A stretch of DNA of 64,000 nt from Paramuribaculum sp. (GCA_029052015.1 JAIDJW010000033.1:59-64058); one strand, 5' to 3'. Shown: positions 1 through 9,835, counted from the first letter of the stretch. The notes: generated from the letters alone by a model not told the origin. Program-made: numbers and translations.

Positions 1-887
1 GCCGAGACCACCGACGAAGCGGCCGTTGCCCCGGAATTGCCGACCGCACCGACTATCCTCACGGCATTGGTATTATCGGCAAAACGCTCCATATTGCCGC
101 CTTTGAGGGTGACAAGGCTCTGCAGCGAGCCCTTGAAGAGCATTCCTGTGCCGGAAAGAGCATATCGCAGCCGTTTGTCGCCGTAGCCTCCTCCAGCCTC
201 CACTGTGCCCATTGGCTTGAAGAGAGCCTTGGACTTGAGCTTGATATTGACAGCGACGTTGTCGCTCACCTTATCCTTGTCAATCTTCAGGTCGTGATGA
301 TTGGAAATCACCTGCACGTCCTTCACATAATCGGCGGGAATGCTCCGCGTGGCTATGGAATATCTGCCGCCGAGCATATCGAGCCCCTCGACATAAAAAT
401 TGCTTATGTCCTTGCCCATGTACTTTATCACTCCGTTGTCCTCGACCGTGATACCGGGAATTTTCTTCAGCGCGTCCTCAAGCACCACATCGCCCTTGCC
501 CTTGAACATGTCGAGAAAGAAGCTCAGGGTGTCACCCCTCAGCTTTACGGACGGAGCGGCAACAACAACCTCGCGAAGCTCGCGCGACCTGGGCGTCATC
601 ACCACATCGAGAACATTGCCGGCGGGTAGCGGCTTTGTCACCTTGTCGTATGAAAGATGCTCGAATGTAACGCTGAGTGAATCGCTGCGCCGGGGCACCT
701 TCAGAGAATAGGAACCGTCGGATTTAGTGCGCGCGAATGATCGCGTGAGCCTGCCTTTCACAAGTTTTACGGTCACAGACTGCACCGGAGCGCCATCGGT
801 ATCCATAACGGCACCCGTTATGATTTCCTGCGCGTAAACGCCCGAAAACGCCGCTAACGCAAGAATAAACGCGATGATTCGTTTCAT
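1..887 (-). CDS. TonB-dependent-receptor-like outer-membrane protein with N-terminal carboxypeptidase-regulatory-like domain (5' part; runs off the window start)
   Basis: Absent from the ORF track because it is open at the edge. Manual translation from ATG at 887 gives MKRIIAFILALAAFSGVYAQEIITGAVMDTDGAPVQSVTVKL...LREVVVAAPSVKLRGDTLSF...LEDALKKIPGITVEDNGVIKYMGKDISNFYVEGLDMLGGRYSIATRSIP, i.e. signal peptide, CarboxypepD_reg-like domain and plug-like region typical of barrels encoded next to GLPGLI genes. ATGA overlap with the upstream gene. Confidence 0.85.
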   Translation of the reverse strand, partial: MKRIIAFILALAAFSGVYAQEIITGAVMDTDGAPVQSVTVKLVKGRLTRSFARTKSDGSYSLKVPRRSDSLSVTFEHLSYDKVTKPLPAGNVLDVVMTPRSRELREVVVAAPSVKLRGDTLSFFLDMFKGKGDVVLEDALKKIPGITVEDNGVIKYMGKDISNFYVEGLDMLGGRYSIATRSIPADYVKDVQVISNHHDLKIDKDKVSDNVAVNIKLKSKALFKPMGTVEAGGGYGDKRLRYALSGTGMLFKGSLQSLVTLKGGNMERFADNTNAVRIVGAVGNSGATAASSVVS

Positions 888-1801
888 TTCAGCTCAAGCG
901 GCTGATAGATATTGACCGGTGTGCGCTGCTGAATGCCGTTGACAAAAATCGAACCCCAGTCGCCGCCGTTTTTCTTCACTGAGATGTCGGTTATCATCGC
1001 AGGATTGATGGATTTCATGGGATTTTGCGCCTGGCTGTTCTTTATGCCGACGAATTTGTCGCGGTCGGTCTTTACGGTGCGCTTGTCCTTGGCTCGGAGC
1101 AGCGGCACATTGCTCTTTGTGAAACTGATGAGCTTGAATTCATGTATGCCGTCGGCATCGGAAGCCTTGACAACAAGCCCGGGGAGTCCGGCAAGTTTCC
1201 AGGGACCGTATGCGGCAGGTATCTCCTCCGTGTACCACACTGTCCACTTTCTTCCTCCGTAGCTACCTGTGGCTTTGGCTATATTGTATCCTGCAAGTGT
1301 GTCGGTCTCCTCTGTGAGAAACCATTCAATATCAGCAAACGGTTCCTCGTAGGACACGACTGTCACTGCCGACATATCATTGACAACCGTCTTGCCCATC
1401 GGAATATTCTGAGTAACTACGGGAACGAAGAAGTTTTCAGTGACGAACTGCTTGCGACGCTCCTCTTCTACAGCCTGCGCAGGTGCTCCGGCGGCGGCGA
1501 GTGAGTCAGCGCTGTAGGTGATGTAATCGGTAAAGACGGCCCCGTCATCACCGATGCGCAGAGCTGTGGCGTAGAGCTCGCTAACAGGATTGCCCTGCTT
1601 GTCCTGAGTATTGATTTTGTAGTCATAGAGAGCTGTGTATTTGCCCTCGCCGAGCTTCTCGAACTCGTTTACAATCTCCTCGCTCATTTGAGTTGCCTCA
1701 GATGTCTTCTTTACTGTTACGCCTCCGCCTTTCACTACTACCTGGGAGGACGCGCCGAGCGCGGTTGCTGCGGCAAGAATTAATGTGACTATTTTTTTCA
1801 T
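884..1801 (-). CDS. GLPGLI family exported protein
   Basis: WYTEEIPAAYGPWKLAGLPGLVVKA signature and signal peptide MKKIVTLILAAATALGASSQ. Start at 1801 preferred over the ORF-track start at 1831 because a -7 box lies at 1820-1827. Confidence 0.9.
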   Translation of the reverse strand: MKKIVTLILAAATALGASSQVVVKGGGVTVKKTSEATQMSEEIVNEFEKLGEGKYTALYDYKINTQDKQGNPVSELYATALRIGDDGAVFTDYITYSADSLAAAGAPAQAVEEERRKQFVTENFFVPVVTQNIPMGKTVVNDMSAVTVVSYEEPFADIEWFLTEETDTLAGYNIAKATGSYGGRKWTVWYTEEIPAAYGPWKLAGLPGLVVKASDADGIHEFKLISFTKSNVPLLRAKDKRTVKTDRDKFVGIKNSQAQNPMKSINPAMITDISVKKNGGDWGSIFVNGIQQRTPVNIYQPLELK

Positions 1802-1819
1802 GATCATAAGGATTTTTGG

Positions 1820-1827
1820 CAAAAGTA
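1820..1827 (-). promoter_or_regulatory. Bacteroidetes sigma-70 -7 element (TACTTTTG)
   Basis: Matches TAnnTTTG about 20 nt upstream of the GLPGLI ATG. Confidence 0.6.
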
Positions 1828-1901
1828 TCAATAAAAGCCGTCAATCTGTTACAATCTAACATTTTTTGTGCTTTATTTTGATGAGTTTCAACTAATCATC
1901 C

Positions 1902-1933
1902 TACCCCCCCTATAGTTAATTCATGTTAACACA
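1902..1933. repeat. Direct repeat copy 1: TA-C7-T-ATAGTTAATTCATGTTAACACA
   Basis: The 22-bp core at 1912-1933 is identical to 7449-7470. Both copies are preceded by TA plus a poly-C run and contain the palindrome GTTAA-N6-TTAAC. Confidence 0.9.
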
Positions 1934-1936
1934 CGC

Positions 1937-1978
1937 AAAAAAATAAAGCAGGGAGAGAAGCCCTGAGGCAACTCTCCC
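1937..1978 (-). terminator. Intrinsic terminator of the six-gene envelope operon
   Basis: GGGAGAG-TT-GCC-TCAG-GGC-TT-CTCTCCC hairpin followed by TGCTTTATTTTTTT on the minus strand, about 35 nt past the stop at 2014. Confidence 0.75.
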
Positions 1979-2013
1979 AAACTTTACATCGTATAAACCG
2001 TAAACCGTAAACC

Positions 2014-3528
2014 TTACTTTTTCTTCTTCAGGCGAAGGAAATATCCGGTGTAGTCCTTGCCTTTTTTGCCCTTGAATGCAGAAGCCATAAGACTGGCAGC
2101 ATCTTCTCTGGCGCCCTCTTCATCCTTTACCTCGGCGCCTTTGTTTTTCTCCTCTTTCTTTTCTGCGAGCTCGTCTACCGCACCATAACGGTTATCCCAA
2201 ATGCGGGTTTCATCAGGTTCTACAGTTGCGACAGCCTTGTAAGTAACGCGACCGGTTGCAGGATCCTCAATCGCTTCAAGGACTTCGTACTTGTCACCTT
2301 TCTTGAGATCTTCTTTCAGACCGATGCCCGCATATATGGTGCCGTCCTCATCACAGCGAGAGATGGGAGCGATGGTGCGGAACACCTCGTGCTTGCTCTG
2401 GAGCTTGCATATAGCGTTGTCAATAGCGCGTGCTGTAGCGCGCTCGATAAGTGTGCTCTGGGGAGTTGTGTTGAAGATGCTCTGGCGCACATTGCAACCT
2501 GCCTTGTCCTTACCCACGAAGCTGAGCTTGCACAGACCGGTGGCAACCAGGTCCTCGATACTCTTGTTCTGGTCATAGATTTTTTCAGCGAATTCTGCCG
2601 AAATCTCATCGTTCCAGTCAAGTTTGTAAAGATATGTCACAGCCTGCACCTGGAAACCCTCACCTGCAGCAGCGCTGGCAACAGCACCTGCTACTTTGCC
2701 GATGCTGCCAAACATACCCTCTGCCATAGCCTGGCTCTCTGCCACTACAGCCTGATTGCTGCGGAAGCGGAGATTTACGGCGAGAACGTATGTGTTGTTG
2801 ATTAGATCAAAGCCCTTGCCTGCGAGATTGCTTGCAAAGAAACCGCTTTCCTTTGCCTTTGCGAGATCTTCGGCCGATGCGTTCTGGAGACCGCGCTCCT
2901 GAATGAGCTTCACATCCTTGTCCCAAGCGCCGTTTTCATAACCAAACCATTTGCCGATGAGGTCGGCTGCGGTGTTGTTGCCCTGGAAACTCTTGGCGAT
3001 AACTGCGGGAAGGTAGTCTTCCATGTCGTCGGTGGAGAGCATGGCTGAATTCGATGTGCCTGCCTGAGCGGCCATAGTAGAAGCAGCCACTCCTTTTGCA
3101 AATGAGCCAAACTTCTTGCCGTTTGACTTCTTTTCAGCATACTGTGCTTTCTCCTCATCGGTAACTGTGGCTTTGACTGCATCATAGTCGATGACGCGGA
3201 GAGCAAGGTTGTGGTCGTTAAACTGTGAAGGAATGGGAATATTCGGGAATTTCAGAAGAGGTATCTCCACAACGGGAATTCCCGCCATAGAATCGTTTGC
3301 CGCTTTCTTTGCATCAGTATTTGCAAGTCCTTTGGCAATATCCATGAATTCATTGGTCTTAGTCTCGTCAATCTGTTTCTGCAGACGAGCGTTCTGCTCG
3401 TCACTCTTGACAAGAATAGTGTAAAGTGAGCTACGCATGTAGGTAGGCTCATTGTCTGCTATGGCAACTGCGGGAGCTGCAAAGCCAACGATAGTTGCGA
3501 TAGCGGCAACTTTGCTGATTAGTTTCAT
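2014..3528 (-). CDS. Exported hypothetical protein with a C-terminal region resembling FlgT/CsgG-associated beta domains
   Basis: 504 aa with signal peptide. C-terminal IYAGIGLKEDLKKGDKYEVLEAIEDPATG resembles the FlgT C-terminal pattern (by eye only). Confidence 0.7.
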   Translation of the reverse strand: MKLISKVAAIATIVGFAAPAVAIADNEPTYMRSSLYTILVKSDEQNARLQKQIDETKTNEFMDIAKGLANTDAKKAANDSMAGIPVVEIPLLKFPNIPIPSQFNDHNLALRVIDYDAVKATVTDEEKAQYAEKKSNGKKFGSFAKGVAASTMAAQAGTSNSAMLSTDDMEDYLPAVIAKSFQGNNTAADLIGKWFGYENGAWDKDVKLIQERGLQNASAEDLAKAKESGFFASNLAGKGFDLINNTYVLAVNLRFRSNQAVVAESQAMAEGMFGSIGKVAGAVASAAAGEGFQVQAVTYLYKLDWNDEISAEFAEKIYDQNKSIEDLVATGLCKLSFVGKDKAGCNVRQSIFNTTPQSTLIERATARAIDNAICKLQSKHEVFRTIAPISRCDEDGTIYAGIGLKEDLKKGDKYEVLEAIEDPATGRVTYKAVATVEPDETRIWDNRYGAVDELAEKKEEKNKGAEVKDEEGAREDAASLMASAFKGKKGKDYTGYFLRLKKKK

Positions 3529-3561
3529 AAAAGGTATATTAATAATTGGTTTCTTTGATGA

Positions 3562-4527
3562 TTAAAGCCAGTAGTGGCGGATGATAGTCTTGGGTTGGTT
3601 TTGTGCGCGAGCAACTGCAACGCTCTTGGCGGCATCGACAACTTTCATGCGAAACGCGTGGTCGTTTGCCATCCGCTTTTTTTCCATTGCAAGAGCGTCC
3701 TCATACTTCTTGACATTCTCAAAAACCCACTGCTCCTTTACGGCGCTGGACATCTTTTTAGAAAGCACATTTGCGCGAGCTTTAGCGCTTGCGCTGGGGT
3801 CGATTCGCGCAATCAGGTCAAAAGCTTTTCTCGCACCGGCGGCCGTTGGGTCAGCACCCCATTCTGCCTCTGCCTGTGCCAGTAGCTGATCTCCTTCATA
3901 CTCCGTACGGTGATTGTAAGCTTCCAGCATAAGGTCCTCTGCCTCAGCGTATGCAGGACAGCATTCAGGTATCTGTGAAGCAACATAGATAGCCTCGTCA
4001 TAGTCGCGTTGGTTCATGGCGCTACGGGCTTTTTTGAGAAGCACGGGAGCATAGTTGACATAGTAGTCAAGGATTTTTTTCTTTCCCTCCTCAACAAATG
4101 CCTTGAACTCAGCATTCTGGGCGTTGAGACGACTCATGGCATTGACATAGGCTCGTTCTTCGGATATGCCTGCGCCCTTGAGCTCAAATGACTTTGAAGC
4201 GAACACTTTCTGGTCATCACCATCGCCGATATATACCGTAAGAGTTGTTTTTACGAGGAATTTTTGTGACGGACCGGGAGTTACGTCAAGAAATCCCTTG
4301 TCAAACCGCCCTGCGAGAAAGAAACGGCTACTGTATGCGTCGCCGGCAAGACCGGCAGCGGCAGCAGCACGGGTCAGACGCATCTGAAGTTGGTTTTCTA
4401 CGGCTTTGCTCACCTCATCGCCCTGCTTGATTTCAGCTACTGCGATGTGGAGCTCACACTCAGCCATTGCAAGAGGCGAACCCAAAAGCATGGCGGCTGC
4501 AATGGCGCAAATTGATTTTCTTATCAT
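3562..4527 (-). CDS. Exported hypothetical protein: alpha/beta N-terminal domain plus TPR-like helical region
   Basis: 321 aa with signal peptide. LLKKARSAMNQRDYDEAIYVASQIP is TPR-like. Sits in the operon with short spacers. Confidence 0.7.
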   Translation of the reverse strand: MIRKSICAIAAAMLLGSPLAMAECELHIAVAEIKQGDEVSKAVENQLQMRLTRAAAAAGLAGDAYSSRFFLAGRFDKGFLDVTPGPSQKFLVKTTLTVYIGDGDDQKVFASKSFELKGAGISEERAYVNAMSRLNAQNAEFKAFVEEGKKKILDYYVNYAPVLLKKARSAMNQRDYDEAIYVASQIPECCPAYAEAEDLMLEAYNHRTEYEGDQLLAQAEAEWGADPTAAGARKAFDLIARIDPSASAKARANVLSKKMSSAVKEQWVFENVKKYEDALAMEKKRMANDHAFRMKVVDAAKSVAVARAQNQPKTIIRHYWL

Positions 4528-4545
4528 AGCATGGAGGGATTTGGT

Positions 4546-5484
4546 TTATTTTTCACCGATAGCAAGACTTCCGGAGCCAAGAGTCGAACTTGTATTTTCA
4601 GCTCTGATGCCAAGAGATTTGAGATGTGCCTGCAGACCGGCTACAAACTGCTTGGCGTTTATAGCTTTGCCGGAAGCATCGCGCATTGGCACACGCACCT
4701 GATGATACGCAAGTCGATTGCGTGTCGAACTCCTCTCTGTAAAGCGATGATCCTGAGTGTTCTCATGCATCCAGTCATAAATGATATTGCCGAGTTCCTT
4801 GCCACCGAATTCTGTGTTGAAGTTGAGACCTGAGCCATTGTCAATAATCCGGAAATTCATACGCATCTCGCGTCCGTTTGCCTGCACATCGGCAAAATGA
4901 TTCATGAGCTGGGTGCAGAATTCGTCCATATTGCTCTTCATGGCCTCTGTGATAGCGGCGCTCAGAGGAGTTGTGCGGGGCACAGGCGCACCCTCGGAAG
5001 TCACTGCGGCTATGCTCTTGTTAGAATATGAATCAAGAGCCTCGAGACGATATGAAAGACTATAATTGAAGCCTACTGAATTTTTAATCCAACCGATTTT
5101 GATGATGATGTCCGGCTTGGCGTTTGCAATGATGATATCTGAGCTGCTTTTAGCGTATGAACTACCGGTCTCAGCGCCTTCAAAAGCCTCATCCTCCATT
5201 TCATCAAGATCATCGCTTTCCTGCTCAGCGCCGAAGTCCTTCAAGGGGAATCCACGCTGTGCGAAAACAGAATTAACTCCTGTTTTTACCTGTGTGAGCT
5301 CCTGGTCAAGAAATGCTTTCTCGTAGTCCTCATACACTTTTGTTTTGCCGCCACGGTCTACCTGATTGACATAACCCTGTGCATTACACCAGGTTTTGTC
5401 TGGCAGCAGCATTATTGAGGGTGCCTCGGCGTAAACAGAAACAGCCATGACGCCGGCAGCGATAAGTGATATTATTTTCTTCAT
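4546..5484 (-). CDS. DUF6175 family exported protein
   Basis: PSIMLLPDKTWC...GFPLKD...DIIIKIGW...LEALDSYSNKSIAA...QVRVPM pattern and a signal peptide. Confidence 0.7.
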   Translation of the reverse strand: MKKIISLIAAGVMAVSVYAEAPSIMLLPDKTWCNAQGYVNQVDRGGKTKVYEDYEKAFLDQELTQVKTGVNSVFAQRGFPLKDFGAEQESDDLDEMEDEAFEGAETGSSYAKSSSDIIIANAKPDIIIKIGWIKNSVGFNYSLSYRLEALDSYSNKSIAAVTSEGAPVPRTTPLSAAITEAMKSNMDEFCTQLMNHFADVQANGREMRMNFRIIDNGSGLNFNTEFGGKELGNIIYDWMHENTQDHRFTERSSTRNRLAYHQVRVPMRDASGKAINAKQFVAGLQAHLKSLGIRAENTSSTLGSGSLAIGEK

Positions 5485-5523
5485 CGTTTTTTAGTGTGAT
5501 TGGTTTATCTGTCTGTATATTTG

Positions 5524-6024
5524 TTAAGGTTTAAGGATTCCGTCTTTTACAAGCTGATCGCGCAGCGCACGGCGGTCAACATCAAGCACCACTCCGTATC
5601 CGTCGATTGATTTAGTGGAGCCCTTCATTCGCGCTTCGCCGCTCTTGCTGTTTTCTTTCACATACTTGCGGTATTTGCCGCCATCCCTGAAGAAAGGGGC
5701 AAAATAATAATCGTAGCGCTCGCGTCCGTTTACCTCCATTACCAAAGGATGACGCTCGGCACCCTGAACCCCCTGCGAGAATCCGTTGAACAGCACGGTG
5801 GCGAGAGCATTTTTCTTTGCCTGCTCCACTGCCTCGCTCTGACTGGTGCCCCTACCCCATGCACGCACGGTGAGTGTGCCGTCACCGTTCTGACCGAGAC
5901 ACACGGTTTCCATATTGGTATAAGCGGCAGCGGGCACCACAGTGGGCTTTTTGCTGCAACCGCCTGTAGTTGTCGCTGCAACCGCGATAAGCGCGCAAAC
6001 GATTAGTCTGACAGTTTTTTTCAT
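5524..6024 (-). CDS. Hypothetical lipoprotein (LPP20/FlgT-N-like), paralog of 6761..7264
   Basis: Signal peptide ending ...TTGGC (lipobox-like). Contains AWGRGTSQSEAVEQAKKNALATVLFNG and shares LF(N/K)G, FxPFF and LRxxLxKxG motifs with the 167-aa protein. Confidence 0.7.
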   Translation of the reverse strand: MKKTVRLIVCALIAVAATTTGGCSKKPTVVPAAAYTNMETVCLGQNGDGTLTVRAWGRGTSQSEAVEQAKKNALATVLFNGFSQGVQGAERHPLVMEVNGRERYDYYFAPFFRDGGKYRKYVKENSKSGEARMKGSTKSIDGYGVVLDVDRRALRDQLVKDGILKP

Positions 6025-6032
6025 AATATGAG

Positions 6033-6761
6033 TTAGAATTCGTAGCCTAATTTGAGACCTAGAAATGATAGCACCTGACGCTTGCGCTCACCCTCTTTAT
6101 TAATTAGCGGAAGCTGCTGCGCAGTGTAATTGAGGGATACAAGGAACGACGACCGGTCGACACCGAACTTGAAGCCTATGGCAGGTCGCGCCATAAGACC
6201 GTCACGGAACGCACCGCCGAGATCAACAGAATAGTATGGAACTATGCTGCGATATGCGTGTCCGAGAAGATTGCCGCGCACATTGAAGTAAAGCGGTATA
6301 GCCCATTTTACAGAGGAGTCGCGGAAATCGGGAACCTGACTGAAGTAGTGTCGATAGCCTACTCCAAGACCGATGCGGGCATACTGGCTGCCGCGATAAC
6401 CGAACACAAAGTCTCCTTCGGCATACATTCTGTTAGTGTGGCTCACCCTTACAGAACTACCTGCCCCTATCTCAAACGCACACCAGAATCCGTGCTCCAT
6501 AGAGCGCAGCCGGGTGAGGTTGCCATCATGCCCGACTGATGGCACTTCCGGTGCCTGACGCGTGATTTTACGCACCTCAGTCATATTATAAGTATATAAC
6601 TGACCGTTTTCGCTTCGGATCGTTATACTGACATTGGGCACTTCGCTCTCGATATATCCTTTGATGACGCTACCGTTGTTGAGGTATATGTAATCGGCGC
6701 TCCTGGCGCCGGCACCGAGCGCGCACACTACCAGTGCGAGCAGCATAATCAGTTTCTTCAT
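6033..6761 (-). CDS. Small outer-membrane beta-barrel with N-terminal soluble domain
   Basis: Signal peptide, N-domain DYIYLNNGSVIKGYI, amphipathic beta strands and a C-terminal BAM-type signal LGLKLGYEF. Confidence 0.8.
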   Translation of the reverse strand: MKKLIMLLALVVCALGAGARSADYIYLNNGSVIKGYIESEVPNVSITIRSENGQLYTYNMTEVRKITRQAPEVPSVGHDGNLTRLRSMEHGFWCAFEIGAGSSVRVSHTNRMYAEGDFVFGYRGSQYARIGLGVGYRHYFSQVPDFRDSSVKWAIPLYFNVRGNLLGHAYRSIVPYYSVDLGGAFRDGLMARPAIGFKFGVDRSSFLVSLNYTAQQLPLINKEGERKRQVLSFLGLKLGYEF

Positions 6762-7264
6762 TACCAGCCGCTGTTTAGTCCGCGAATAACTCCCTGCTTC
6801 TCCAGATCCTGACGCAGGAGAGCGGTGTTGATTGTGAGCTGTACGGATACCTTGAACTGTTTGCCGTATTTCGCTACCCTGCGTGTATGCTCAACAAACT
6901 GCACATAGTTCATATAATCACCGTTTGCAAAAAACGGGGTAAAGAAGTCGGAATGCTGTGTCTTTACCGTGGGCGAGCCGGCCATCGGATTGTGACGGGT
7001 AGCTGTGCCGGAAAGAGTGTTGGTAGAATCATCATACCCTTTAAAAAGGATTGCATTGACTGCAGCTTCTGCAAGCTGTTTGTCTGTAACCTTATCGGCT
7101 TTCTTGGCTACAATAGTTACGCGCACGTTGGCGCTGCCATTGTTGCCGGCTCCGGCTCCTTCGAGATATGCCTCTGACACATCGGGTGCCTTGTCCTTGG
7201 CAAATGTGGATGGAGCGGTGACTGCCATAACAAGCAGTACTGCCATCGAGAGAAATTTACGCAT
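6761..7264 (-). CDS. Exported hypothetical protein, first gene of the operon, paralog of 5524..6024
   Basis: 167 aa with signal peptide. Motifs AAVNAILFKGY, FFTPFFANGDYMNYV, INTALLRQDLEKQGVI. Its stop overlaps the next start (TAATG). Confidence 0.75.
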   Translation of the reverse strand: MRKFLSMAVLLVMAVTAPSTFAKDKAPDVSEAYLEGAGAGNNGSANVRVTIVAKKADKVTDKQLAEAAVNAILFKGYDDSTNTLSGTATRHNPMAGSPTVKTQHSDFFTPFFANGDYMNYVQFVEHTRRVAKYGKQFKVSVQLTINTALLRQDLEKQGVIRGLNSGW

Positions 7265-7412
7265 GTCTGTGTCTTTTTATATTAATTAGTTGGTATTCTG
7301 TCCATATTATAGTCCGCAGATATTCTTTAATAAGCATCCGGGAGCTATTCACATCCTGTTGTTCGCAGATCATAACATTAATTACATTTAATTAAAATTA
7401 TGACCTCGGGTG

Positions 7413-7420
7413 CAAATTTA
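7413..7420 (-). promoter_or_regulatory. -7 element (TAAATTTG) of the six-gene operon
   Basis: TAnnTTTG match. The expected -33 position falls on the adjacent poly-G tract. Confidence 0.6.
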
Positions 7421-7437
7421 TGAAATATGGGTCAAAA

Positions 7438-7470
7438 TACCCCCCCCCATAGTTAATTCATGTTAACACA
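7438..7470. repeat. Direct repeat copy 2: TA-C9-ATAGTTAATTCATGTTAACACA
   Basis: 22-bp core at 7449-7470 is identical to copy 1. The poly-C run is 9 nt here versus 7 nt in copy 1. Confidence 0.9.
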
Positions 7471-7493
7471 ACACAAACATGCGGTTAAAAGGG

Positions 7494-8399
7494 TCATTTC
7501 ACGGCTTTTGTCGCCGATTTACTGATTGTCACGAGATATACTCCACAAAAGATAAATAAAACAGCCATACATTTGGCAGGAGTAAAAGCGTCAAGCCCAA
7601 GAGTAACACCTACTACAGAGGCCACTACAGGCTGAACATAATTGTACATACCGACGAGAGTTGGCCGCAAGTGTTTCTGACCAATCATTATGCATATATA
7701 GGCAAGAAAGGTGGCACAGCACACCACAAAAGCCACGCCTCCCCACTCTAACGCTGATATACGGGTCCACAACACAGCTTTCCACTCAGCGAGCGAGAAC
7801 GGGGTGATAGCTATCGCGGCGAAAGTGAACATCCATTTCATCAAGGTGACCACTGAATACTTTTTAATGAAATTGCGGTAAAAGGTCAGATACAACGCGT
7901 AGCTTAGCTGAGCTGTAAGCACCAGGAGGTCTCCGAGAACATGGTTTGAGCCTGACTGAGAAACGCTCTTGCCTGACAGAACAAGCAATAGAGCTCCTGC
8001 AGCGCCGAGTGCCACTCCTCCCGCCTTCTTCAGTGTAATCGGTTCGCCGAGAACTACGGCGGCAAGCACCATGACCCATAGCGGCATGGTGGTGGTTATT
8101 ATGGATGCCTCCCCGGGAGATGTCATCCCGACACCGAATATATAGCATCCCTGATTGAAAAGAATGCCGAGCATTGCGGCTCCGGCAAGCAAAAGCAAAT
8201 CAAGCGGCGCCACTTTTTCTTTTGCAGTAAATACTGATGTAGTCCAAAACAGCACAGCCGCACCGATTATGCGGAAGTCGGTAAGCAGCAGCGGAGTGAC
8301 AATGCCGCCGGCAAGAACGAGCTTCGCCACCGGAGCCATTAGTCCCCACATGGTATTGGCACCGAGCATTGCAAGATGTCCTTTCAGCTTCTCATTCAT
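7494..8399 (-). CDS. DMT/EamA family transporter
   Basis: About 10 hydrophobic segments in two EamA repeats (LGEPITLKKAGGVALG; YNYVQPVVAS). Confidence 0.9.
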   Translation of the reverse strand: MNEKLKGHLAMLGANTMWGLMAPVAKLVLAGGIVTPLLLTDFRIIGAAVLFWTTSVFTAKEKVAPLDLLLLAGAAMLGILFNQGCYIFGVGMTSPGEASIITTTMPLWVMVLAAVVLGEPITLKKAGGVALGAAGALLLVLSGKSVSQSGSNHVLGDLLVLTAQLSYALYLTFYRNFIKKYSVVTLMKWMFTFAAIAITPFSLAEWKAVLWTRISALEWGGVAFVVCCATFLAYICIMIGQKHLRPTLVGMYNYVQPVVASVVGVTLGLDAFTPAKCMAVLFIFCGVYLVTISKSATKAVK

Positions 8400-8419
8400 A
8401 ATAAAGCCTTAACGCATAA

Positions 8420-8453
8420 ATAATGCCCCCCGCGTGGTTGCAGACGGCATTAT
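8420..8453 (-). terminator. Possible terminator hairpin after the MIPS gene
   Basis: ATAATGCC...GGCATTAT inverted repeat about 40 nt after the stop. The U-tract is weak. Confidence 0.4.
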
Positions 8454-8491
8454 CGTAATTCAATCTGAATCTTGATATAAGGAAGAATCTA

Positions 8492-9835
8492 TCAGTCTAT
8501 TTCTTCATCGGCTTCGTAACCGCCCATCTCGCGGATAGCGTTTTTGAGCATGGTGTACTGCTTGAAGAGATGATTCACCGGCACCTCTCCATTTATATAA
8601 TCATGCATGGGGCTCTTCAGGAAGAAACTGAGGAAGCGCTGTATGCCATGACGGCCTGCACGGGCGGCAAGATCGCTCAGAAGCACGAGGTCAAGACACA
8701 GTGGCGCGGCAAGGATAGAATCGCGGCAGAGGAAATTAATCTTAATCTGCATGGGATAGCCCATCCAGCCGAAAATGTCGATATTGTCCCAGCCTTCCTT
8801 GCTGTCATTGCGCGGAGGATAGTAGTTGATGCGCACTTTGTGATAATAGCCCTGATGACCGCCTTCTTCAGCGCCACCGCAGTTGGCATTGTAAAGGTCG
8901 GGCTGCTCTTCTGGCACGAGGATTGATTCGAGAGTCGACAACTTCGAAACCTCCTTGGTGCGGAAGTTGGCTGGCTCGTCGAGCACAAGACCGTCACGGT
9001 TGCCGAGAATATTGGTTGAGAACCAGCCGCTGAGACCGAGACACCGTGTGCCTATTATGGGTGCAAAACCTGATTTCACAAGAGTCTGACCGGTCTTGAA
9101 GTCCTTGCCGGCGATGGGCATGCGGGTCTTTTCGCTGAGTTCCCACATTGCGGGGATGTCGACTGTAGTGTTTGGAGCGCCCATGATGAAGGGTGCGCCC
9201 TCGCTTAGTGCGGCGTAAGCATAGCACATGGAGGGAGCTATATGCTCTTTGTCGTCTGCCTGCATTGCTGCCTCGAGGGATTCGAGCGAACCATGCACTT
9301 CCTCATCAACAGGAACATATACTTCAGTAGAAGCAGCCCAGAGAACCACAACGCGCTCCACTCCGGTCTCTTTTTTAAAGCTGCGGATATCCTCGCGGAG
9401 TTGTTCTACCATTTCCCAACGGGTTTTGCCGGTCATTATATTGTCGCCATTCAGCCGCTTTGCATAATTGTGGTCGAATGCCGCCTTCATGGGCACAATC
9501 TTTTCAAGCTCGTCCTTAACCGGCTCGATATCCTTGTCATTAAGCACTTCCGCATATTTCGCGCTCTCGTACGCATTTGCGGGGTAAACATCCCATGCGC
9601 CGAACACTATATCATCAAGCTTAGCCAAGGGCACAATATCCTCATATTTCAGATATTTTTTTTCTGAGCCTCTGCCCACACGAATCTTATCATACTGGGT
9701 CATTGCGCCTACCGGCTTGGCAAGACCTTTGCGGGCCATGAGGACACCTGTCATAAATGTTGAACTGACAGCGCCGAGACCGACCACAAGAACGCCTAGT
9801 TTACCGTCTGCTGGCTTTACCGTTGCCTTGTTCAT
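8492..9835 (-). CDS. ino1: myo-inositol-1-phosphate synthase (MIPS)
   Basis: VGLGAVSST Rossmann motif, VVLWAASTE, GKDFKTGQT, NILGNRDG, CRDSILAAPL, SFFLKSP. Confidence 0.96.
   Translation of the reverse strand: MNKATVKPADGKLGVLVVGLGAVSSTFMTGVLMARKGLAKPVGAMTQYDKIRVGRGSEKKYLKYEDIVPLAKLDDIVFGAWDVYPANAYESAKYAEVLNDKDIEPVKDELEKIVPMKAAFDHNYAKRLNGDNIMTGKTRWEMVEQLREDIRSFKKETGVERVVVLWAASTEVYVPVDEEVHGSLESLEAAMQADDKEHIAPSMCYAYAALSEGAPFIMGAPNTTVDIPAMWELSEKTRMPIAGKDFKTGQTLVKSGFAPIIGTRCLGLSGWFSTNILGNRDGLVLDEPANFRTKEVSKLSTLESILVPEEQPDLYNANCGGAEEGGHQGYYHKVRINYYPPRNDSKEGWDNIDIFGWMGYPMQIKINFLCRDSILAAPLCLDLVLLSDLAARAGRHGIQRFLSFFLKSPMHDYINGEVPVNHLFKQYTMLKNAIREMGGYEADEEID

Follow-up and report, generated by a model that had tools for sequence, protein, structure and literature searches.

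A six-gene operon of exported proteins in Paramuribaculum sp., a candidate periplasmic assembly tied to the outer membrane

The window analysed here, a whole stretch of 64,000 nucleotides from Paramuribaculum sp. (GCA_029052015.1, JAIDJW010000033.1:59-64058), contains an operon of six co-oriented open reading frames (ORFs), g1 to g6, which according to the ORF listing span positions 7264..2014 on the minus strand. Source-named homologues of the products come from Muribaculaceae, and the metagenome runs that contain matching DNA are from mouse gut; the bacterium is thus probably an inhabitant of the mouse gut. The N-termini of all six products are basic and then hydrophobic, as in signal peptides, and a lipobox (..TGGC followed by SKK) is confined to g3. 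We consider here what these proteins may build together. The genes and the features that bound them are as follows:

6761..7264, minus strand: g1, 167-amino acid exported small subunit with a cleavable signal peptide and without a lipobox
6033..6761, minus strand: g2, 242 amino acids, probably a small outer-membrane beta-barrel preceded at the N-terminus by a small periplasmic domain
5524..6024, minus strand: g3, 166-amino acid lipoprotein and paralogue of g1, lipobox ..TGGC then SKKP
4546..5484, minus strand: g4, 312-amino acid DUF6175 protein (PF19672)
3562..4527, minus strand: g5, 321-amino acid exported protein, alpha/beta in its N-terminal domain, helical and TPR-like in its C-terminal part
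2014..3528, minus strand: g6, 504-amino acid exported protein with an alpha/beta core and a C-terminal beta domain
1949..1965, minus strand: terminator-like hairpin and T-run, 49 nt past the g6 stop codon
7413..7420, minus strand: candidate Bacteroidetes -7 box, TAAATTTG, ~150 nt upstream of the g1 start codon
7441..7470, no strand assigned: 30-nt direct repeat, upstream copy, bounding the cassette
1904..1933, no strand assigned: 30-nt direct repeat, downstream copy, just past the terminator

The intervals from g1 to g6 are -1 (a 1-nt overlap of g1 and g2), 8, 39, 18 and 33 nt, and the terminator scan found no terminator-like site inside the operon on the minus strand. The -7 consensus of Bacteroidetes promoters is TAnnTTTG, and TAAATTTG at 7420..7413 would act as the operon promoter. 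The initial annotation had described six closely packed, exported genes in one orientation with one downstream terminator, two paralogues of ~166 amino acids of which one is a lipoprotein, and no recognisable enzyme motif. The ORF and terminator listings agree with the first of these statements, the second is borne out by 25% identity between g1 and g3 (E 8e-10) and by the g3 lipobox, and the third by scans of the six products against Pfam, NCBIfam, PADLOC and PHROGs, which returned no enzyme, defence or phage family. Pfam names one product out of the six, g4.

Protein families and conserved neighbours

The small subunits g1 and g3 belong to a family whose 17-member profile, matched by g1 at E 2e-33, retrieves 1,703 cluster representatives (clusters at 50% identity) with E<=1e-3; with E<=1e-10 their number is 1,219. 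The family has no Pfam model, and neither g1 nor g3 has an LPP20 match at E<=1. LPP20 (PF02169) is the family that includes Helicobacter pylori Lpp20 and FlgP. The initial annotation thought that the small paralogues resembled LPP20/FlgP, but none of 115 small-family members matches Pfam LPP20 at E<=0.1, and when the small family is compared profile to profile (hhalign) with an alignment of LPP20 sequences from the phylum, the aligned part is limited to the 16 columns of the 'A..QAKKNA' helix, with a probability of 31%. By sequence the small paralogues are thus not members of LPP20, and in relatives of the cluster LPP20 proteins are found as separate partners (see below). Two representatives of the small family, P0129 and P0130, are ~300 amino acids long and carry the domain twice in tandem. 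The lipoprotein g3 is probably the outer-membrane anchor of any assembly that the operon encodes. At one locus (L165, G174:C52, 8355-10553), homologues of DUF6175 and g5 each have a lipobox and there is no small-family gene, an arrangement which hints that the small lipoprotein may be the membrane anchor in other clusters.

The g4 product matches PF19672 at E 1.3e-85, with 287.6 bits (cut-off 23) over profile positions 2-292 of 293, and has a cleavable signal peptide and no lipobox. A literature search turned up no paper on DUF6175, PF19672 or CsgG-like lipoproteins of Bacteroidetes, and no plasmid carrying a DUF6175 relative was found. On another contig of the source genome a 152-amino acid exported ORF (G000:C100:13247-13519; L026:8146-8604, minus strand) matches only positions 183-275 of the DUF6175 profile (E 4.7e-12) and is a stand-alone copy of the C-subdomain.

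The family alignment shows that the relatives of g5 have in common an alpha/beta domain at the N-terminus and, besides it, a helical part. The description of g5 as a TPR-bearing protein holds for relatives, since a TPR/ARM-like Pfam model is matched in the helical part of 14 of 30 of them, whereas the TPR_6 match of the g5 in the window is itself sub-threshold (E 0.08). The g6 product has a core at residues ~30-385 with helical insertions and a conserved basic tail (..LRLKKKK); ~124 relatives are detectable, and no consistent Pfam family was found in any of the 59 examined. Sequence and profile searches of the PDB with g2, g4, g6, the small family and the g5 family gave nothing meaningful, NCBIfam gave nothing for distant relatives, and matches in the ESM Atlas were unnamed Bacteroidota clusters only. 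Profile-profile comparisons of small with g6, g5 with g6, small with DUF6175 and small with g5 revealed no significant internal homology, and that of g5 with DUF6175 aligned only a 26-column hairpin, at 54% probability.

The distribution of these families was followed in an order-level sample of 401 genomes from 237 genera, whose kinship means that they are not independent. DUF6175/small is present in 85 of the 401 genomes and 62 of the 237 genera, and within the genus DUF6175 is found in 10 of 24 sampled species genomes. The g6 family occurs in 73 of the 401 genomes, 72 of which also have DUF6175. Some genomes have two clusters, and one genome of the genus has counterparts of all six genes, at 39-49% identity. 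The small gene, DUF6175 and g5 stand side by side in 9 of the first nine loci, and at the best 30 loci the small gene adjoins DUF6175 or is fused to it in 30 of 30, with g5 next in 26. Fusions of small and DUF6175, 473-479 amino acids long, occur in at least eight genomes (L027-L034) and recur in other classes of the phylum. The co-occurrence of the genes in other genomes, on which the initial annotation had staked its proposal, was thereby confirmed in the conserved-neighbourhood check. These data also bear on the alternative that the six are unrelated exported proteins which are merely co-transcribed and have no common structure. In its favour, interaction of the products is inferred and not observed directly, but the repeated fusion of small and DUF6175, in the order and again in other classes, together with a gene order conserved across many families and the near-constant presence of DUF6175 beside g6, makes this alternative highly improbable.

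Twenty wider loci were examined with 9-kb flanks. Among the 19 of them with DUF6175, g5 is present in all 19, directly downstream, small in 16 and g6 in 14, and the genes usually run g6, small in one or two copies, DUF6175, g5, with two divergent LPP20-like genes often coming after them. In the window, as in genomes G021 and G051, g6 comes last; the cluster of G051 (L161) has the same order as the window, and between its g5 and g6 lies a gene (L161:7054-8748) for a 564-amino acid protein with nine WG-containing beta repeats (PF14903, E 8e-77). A 9-kb record from human faeces, MT836698.1 (L170, 2003-8510), labelled as an unverified 'Bacteriophage sp.', contains g6, small, a g2-like barrel, small, DUF6175 and g5; its other ORFs do not match the cluster profiles, and the record probably represents DNA of a bacterium that entered a virome sample.

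The probable barrel protein g2 behaves differently from the rest. Its residues ~90-242 form amphipathic beta segments, ~8-9 of them strand-like, and its C-terminus reads ..LGYEF, an aromatic C-terminus being typical of outer-membrane barrel proteins; its N-terminal match to NCBIfam Lepto_7_Nterm is sub-threshold (1.3e-5). The g2 family is present in 71 of the 401 genomes and shares 16 with DUF6175 against ~15 expected, that is, without association, and only the closest g2 orthologues lie within DUF6175 clusters, those of G021, G302, G409, G418 and MT836698.1. The small beta-barrel of the initial annotation is a probable description of the protein but not a core component: g2 is a lineage-specific accessory, found with the cluster in few lineages.

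Beyond the order, DUF6175 is present in 13 genomes of a 201-genome sample of the phylum. One locus from another order of the same class (L148) has the canonical four genes in a row, and 10 of the 10 hits from other classes have a true LPP20 match no more than ~1.5 kb away from the DUF6175-type gene. Six of these other-class loci were inspected by profile, four of the six also by Pfam. They encode a 411-446-amino acid fusion of small with DUF6175-N, the DUF6175 part scoring 38-58 bits (cut-off 23), and the neighbour of this fusion, of 438-468 amino acids, starts with an LPP20 domain (29-40 bits vs a Pfam cut-off of 25.9) and has a C-terminal domain that matches g5-profile positions 47-155 (E 1e-5 to 1e-10). 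Since the small domain and LPP20 co-occur as domains of separate genes, they are different parts of one module, and by these sequence comparisons LPP20 appears as the partner, and not the identity, of the small proteins, and the N-domain is what the g5 family has in common with the LPP20 proteins. In Bacteroidales clusters the LPP20-like lipoproteins are divergent, whereas in the other classes they are true Pfam LPP20 proteins.

Predicted folds

For DUF6175 we used a model of a natural small+DUF6175 protein of 473 amino acids from another genome of the order (L027:1498-2919, minus strand), built on an alignment of 81 rows covering both halves, with a predicted local distance difference test score (pLDDT) of 90.4. 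The best Foldseek match of this fusion model is FlgT in the LPHT ring (E 4e-6, probability 1.0, 435 columns), followed by the FlgT crystal structure (5.8e-6), GNA1162 (4e-4) and CsgG (8e-4, probability 1.0). In VIA the top score falls to CsgG (Z 10.1-10.4 over 130-143 residues), then to PelC (Z 9.5-9.8, root-mean-square deviation (rmsd) 2.6-3.0 A, 106-121 of 131-154 residues), DUF330 (Z 9.1), HpaA (8.6-8.9), LptE (~8), TolB-N (~7.5) and TraT (6.4), with GNA1162 also among the matches. Whole-model fold searches are dominated by the CsgG-like domain, and the matches to CsgG, PelC, DUF330, HpaA, LptE and TolB-N all lie on the N-subdomain of DUF6175; the C-subdomain has only generic alpha/beta matches (Z 6-7) and is a generic alpha/beta sandwich. 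The DUF6175 N-subdomain is thus predicted by the model to have a CsgG/PelC/LptE/TolB-N-type alpha/beta fold, as the initial annotation had proposed by eye. No Pfam CsgG (PF03783) match was found in the six proteins, in the source genome or, among the matches listed, in 32 DUF6175 relatives.

The FlgT match extends over more of the protein. VIA aligns FlgT in order over the small domain and DUF6175-N (199 residues, Z 8.7, rmsd 17 A), with FlgT domain limits taken from bioRxiv 10.64898/2025.12.02.691832. In the model the small domain (residues ~40-160) is arranged as beta-beta-alpha ... beta-beta-beta-alpha, and it is aligned to FlgT-N as part of this two-domain FlgT alignment of the whole fusion.

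An AlphaFold2 model of g6, from a 59-sequence alignment, has a pLDDT of 84.4 and a predicted template modelling score (pTM) of 0.84. Its best Foldseek match is FlgT 3W1E (E 1.6e-3, probability 0.90), followed by FlgT in the LPHT-ring structure, and VIA aligns it to FlgT M+C (Z 5.6-5.8, 230 residues, rmsd ~12 A), CsgG (5.5), CT253 (5.1-5.4), PelC (4.6), and TolB-N and LptE (~4). These matches all fall, weakly, in one alpha/beta group of outer-membrane-associated proteins. The Foldseek check that had been suggested for the predicted folds thus places FlgT at the top for both models, although the proposed likeness of the g6 C-terminus to FlgT is weak by VIA, in both score and rmsd.

These folds bring to mind two known kinds of function. 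The first is an export gate of the PelBC or curli type, in which a DUF6175 ring would funnel a polymer or protein into the g2 barrel and g5 would serve as a TPR scaffold resembling the part of PelB in the periplasm. CsgG is the top match of DUF6175, PelC taken from the PelBC complex is among the best (9h80_C, Z 9.8, rmsd 3.0 A, 121 of 154 residues), and the operon includes both a barrel and a TPR-like protein. However, g2 is missing from most clusters and is shared with DUF6175 no more often than expected, its barrel part of only ~150 residues is too small for a polymer channel, and the 20 wider loci have no conserved gene for a synthase, a glycosyltransferase or an amyloid-like substrate. Moreover, the DUF6175 region at the insertion position is, in the model and the alignment, an acidic helical hairpin and not an amphipathic beta hairpin, and the source genome is without a Pfam CsgG match. 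We regard such a gate as quite unlikely.

The second is a set of accessory lipoproteins for regulation or transport, comparable to LpoB, which activates a peptidoglycan synthase, or to LptE and PqiC, the partners of lipid and lipopolysaccharide (LPS) transport. LptE, LpoB, PqiC and DUF330 proteins share the fold (Z 6.6-9.1), but the genes conserved beside the cluster include none for a penicillin-binding protein, an LptD-like protein or MCE, its distribution is accessory, unlike that of core envelope biogenesis factors, and four to six co-inherited exported subunits with fusions among them favour a self-contained assembly. This makes the accessory set improbable.

Strain variation and a proposed periplasmic scaffold

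The 30-nt direct repeat that brackets the operon consists of a poly-C/G run and a GTTAA-N6-TTAAC palindrome. Its two copies are identical at 29 of 30 nt and are the only ones in the window or anywhere else in the 2.35-Mb assembly; the upstream copy begins 24 nt past the stop codon of a neighbouring gene for a 301-amino acid membrane protein (7494-8399). Contigs of four gut metagenome runs were aligned to positions 500-9000 with a 90% identity threshold, and in run X6 one contig of 1,117 nt, at depth 10.7 and differing at 27 places in 1,066 nt, connects 1933 with 7475 through five other letters, a joint that removes the operon and one repeat copy and keeps the downstream copy (1904..1933). The same run also contains the operon, at depth 4-7. 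Since this contig joins the flanks over a single repeat copy, the operon appears to be a strain-variable cassette; the evidence that a closely related strain has an operon-less allele, one contig from one run with 46 nt on its short side, is good but not conclusive. There is no recombinase gene inside the cassette, and in a synteny test for empty sites the orthologues of the 301-amino acid gene in 14 genomes of the genus had different neighbours and no repeat. Six exact matches of the 19-nt repeat core to metagenome contigs were rejected as chance, all of their flanks being unrelated, and the repeat is not an element of wide occurrence.

Two further observations concern the repeat itself. Contigs of runs X2 and X4 lack one base of the G/C homopolymer with which each repeat copy ends (7440-7448 and 1904-1910), and this difference next to the promoter could be real variation or an assembly error. 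The downstream copy lies ~75-100 nt upstream of the next gene (884-1831), which encodes an exported protein of ~307-315 amino acids, and the palindrome could also be an operator for two transcription units.

A cassette of this kind would suit a module for interaction with the host, phages or competitors, comparable to the lipoproteins HpaA or TraT, that would change the properties of the envelope and be gained, lost or switched under selection. Consistent with this, the operon is present in some and absent from other closely related strains, DUF6175 is patchy in both the genus and the order (10/24 species genomes and 62/237 genera), some genomes have two clusters, the length of the G-run at the promoter varies between samples, and the fold matches include HpaA and TraT at the scores given above. 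The signal for surface export in Bacteroidetes is acidic, and the sole lipoprotein of the operon, g3, instead has Lys-Lys after the lipidated Cys. There is also no PADLOC or PHROGs match, and the homopolymer differences come from assembled contigs only and may be assembly errors. Taken together, we consider an interaction module unlikely.

The reading that we prefer, and to which we give an even chance of being correct, is that the six genes encode a non-enzymatic periplasmic assembly with a structural role, attached to the outer membrane on its inner face and possibly ring-like; the self-contained envelope assembly of the initial annotation is in this form kept as the best reading. We infer from gene content and models that there is a physical complex, that it may have a ring shape, that g3 and g2 would anchor it, and what its cellular role may be. 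Specifically, we propose that 1) the six genes would form one transcription unit that encodes the subunits of the assembly; 2) its conserved core would be four families, namely small (g1 and g3), DUF6175 (g4), g5 and g6; 3) DUF6175 would supply a CsgG/PelC/FlgT-M-like alpha/beta domain; 4) the small subunit, which in some genomes is one polypeptide with DUF6175, may bind it directly; 5) lipidated g3 would anchor the complex to the membrane; 6) g5, with its alpha/beta and TPR-like parts, and g6, which is FlgT-M/C-like, would add layers or adaptors; and, 7) the small barrel of g2 may have been recruited in this lineage as an extra membrane partner. The assembly would most likely serve the envelope as a scaffold, tether or collar, and not as an enzyme or transporter. 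The CsgG/PelC/FlgT-M fold does build oligomeric rings under the membrane in the curli, Pel and Vibrio H-ring systems.

Several points weigh against this scaffold. The idea of a ring or complex rests on models of monomers (g6 and the fusion), and the g6 scores (Z 5.5-5.8) are under the level that VIA calls distinctive. The same fold is found in proteins that do not form rings, such as LpoB, LptE, TolB-N and ribosome hibernation factors, and therefore the fold alone gives no function. The DUF6175 protein of the window is not lipidated, unlike CsgG, PelC, FlgP and FlgO, and the fusion forms are without any lipobox. The source genome has no LPP20 match, so the partner set differs between lineages, and the patchy, strain-variable distribution means that the assembly is dispensable.

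If the proteins do assemble, they would constitute a new envelope structure in dominant gut bacteria. The set of four to six genes is present in ~1 in 5 of the sampled Bacteroidales genomes (62/237 genera) and also elsewhere in the phylum, and three of its four core families have no Pfam model. Mouse gut strains that naturally carry or lack the cassette offer a ready comparison of fitness, vesicles, permeability and phage sensitivity.

Comparison with CsgG, PelC and the flagellar H-ring

CsgG, the curli channel (4UV2, 4UV3, 6LQH), has the top VIA score for DUF6175 and a Foldseek probability of 1.0, but DUF6175 differs from it in having no Pfam match to CsgG, no lipobox and, in the model, no predicted transmembrane beta hairpins, and the operon is without csgE/F/A/B-like genes. 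PelC forms a dodecameric lipoprotein ring under the PelB barrel (5T10, 5T0Z, 9H80). DUF6175-N superposes on nearly all of PelC, and in this lineage the operon includes a TPR-like protein together with a barrel; in contrast to PelC, g4 is not lipidated and is twice as large, and the barrel is small and is not conserved with the cluster. No pel-like family was found by Pfam among ten accessory neighbours, and no extra gene recurs beside the clusters.

The LPP20 family resembles the small family in its helix, to which the 'A..QAKKNA' helix of the small family aligns, and differs from it in that the small domain and LPP20 stand side by side as distinct domains in the distant modules. FlgP is annotated as an LPP20-family protein. 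The H-ring is built by FlgP, FlgT and FlgO, with 26 FlgT, 58 FlgP and 58 FlgO, of which FlgP and FlgO are lipid-anchored (bioRxiv 10.64898/2025.12.02.691832).

With the Vibrio H-ring (3W1E, 8Z5N) there are differences of several kinds. The 87%-complete source genome has no match to FlgI or flagellin, in agreement with the lack of flagella that had been expected, so that there is no flagellar LP-ring to encircle. Pfam FlgT_N and FlgT_M, and likewise FlgT_C, were not found in the six proteins (E<=1) nor, among the matches listed, in 59 g6 relatives and 32 DUF6175 relatives, and a Pfam FlgO search of the source genome gave only a chance-level match elsewhere. DUF6175 has an extra C-subdomain and g6 has large helical insertions, the domain orientations are unlike those of FlgT (rmsd 12-17 A over whole chains), and in these comparisons g5 has no counterpart in the H-ring. 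There are also likenesses: FlgT heads the Foldseek matches of both models (E 4e-6 and 1.6e-3), the fusion aligning to its N+M domains (Z 8.7) and g6 to M+C (Z 5.6-5.8), all parts of the cluster are exported and non-enzymatic, some are lipid-anchored, and relatives have LPP20-type partners. The three domains N, M and C that make up FlgT, with their TolB-N-like folds, are in these alignments divided between proteins.

The link between DUF6175 and true LPP20 proteins provides a testable evolutionary bridge to the proteins of the flagellar H-ring and basal disk. A tentative and rather doubtful extension of the scaffold is that the FlgT/FlgP/FlgO module has a non-flagellar relative in the DUF6175 cluster, a stand-alone ring or collar beneath the outer membrane in a phylum without flagella, whose deeper-branching form would have two genes, the small+DUF6175 fusion and an LPP20 protein with the g5 N-domain at its end. 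If this were true, the cluster would either encode a hitherto undescribed envelope organelle or represent the stock that yielded flagellar outer rings and basal disks.

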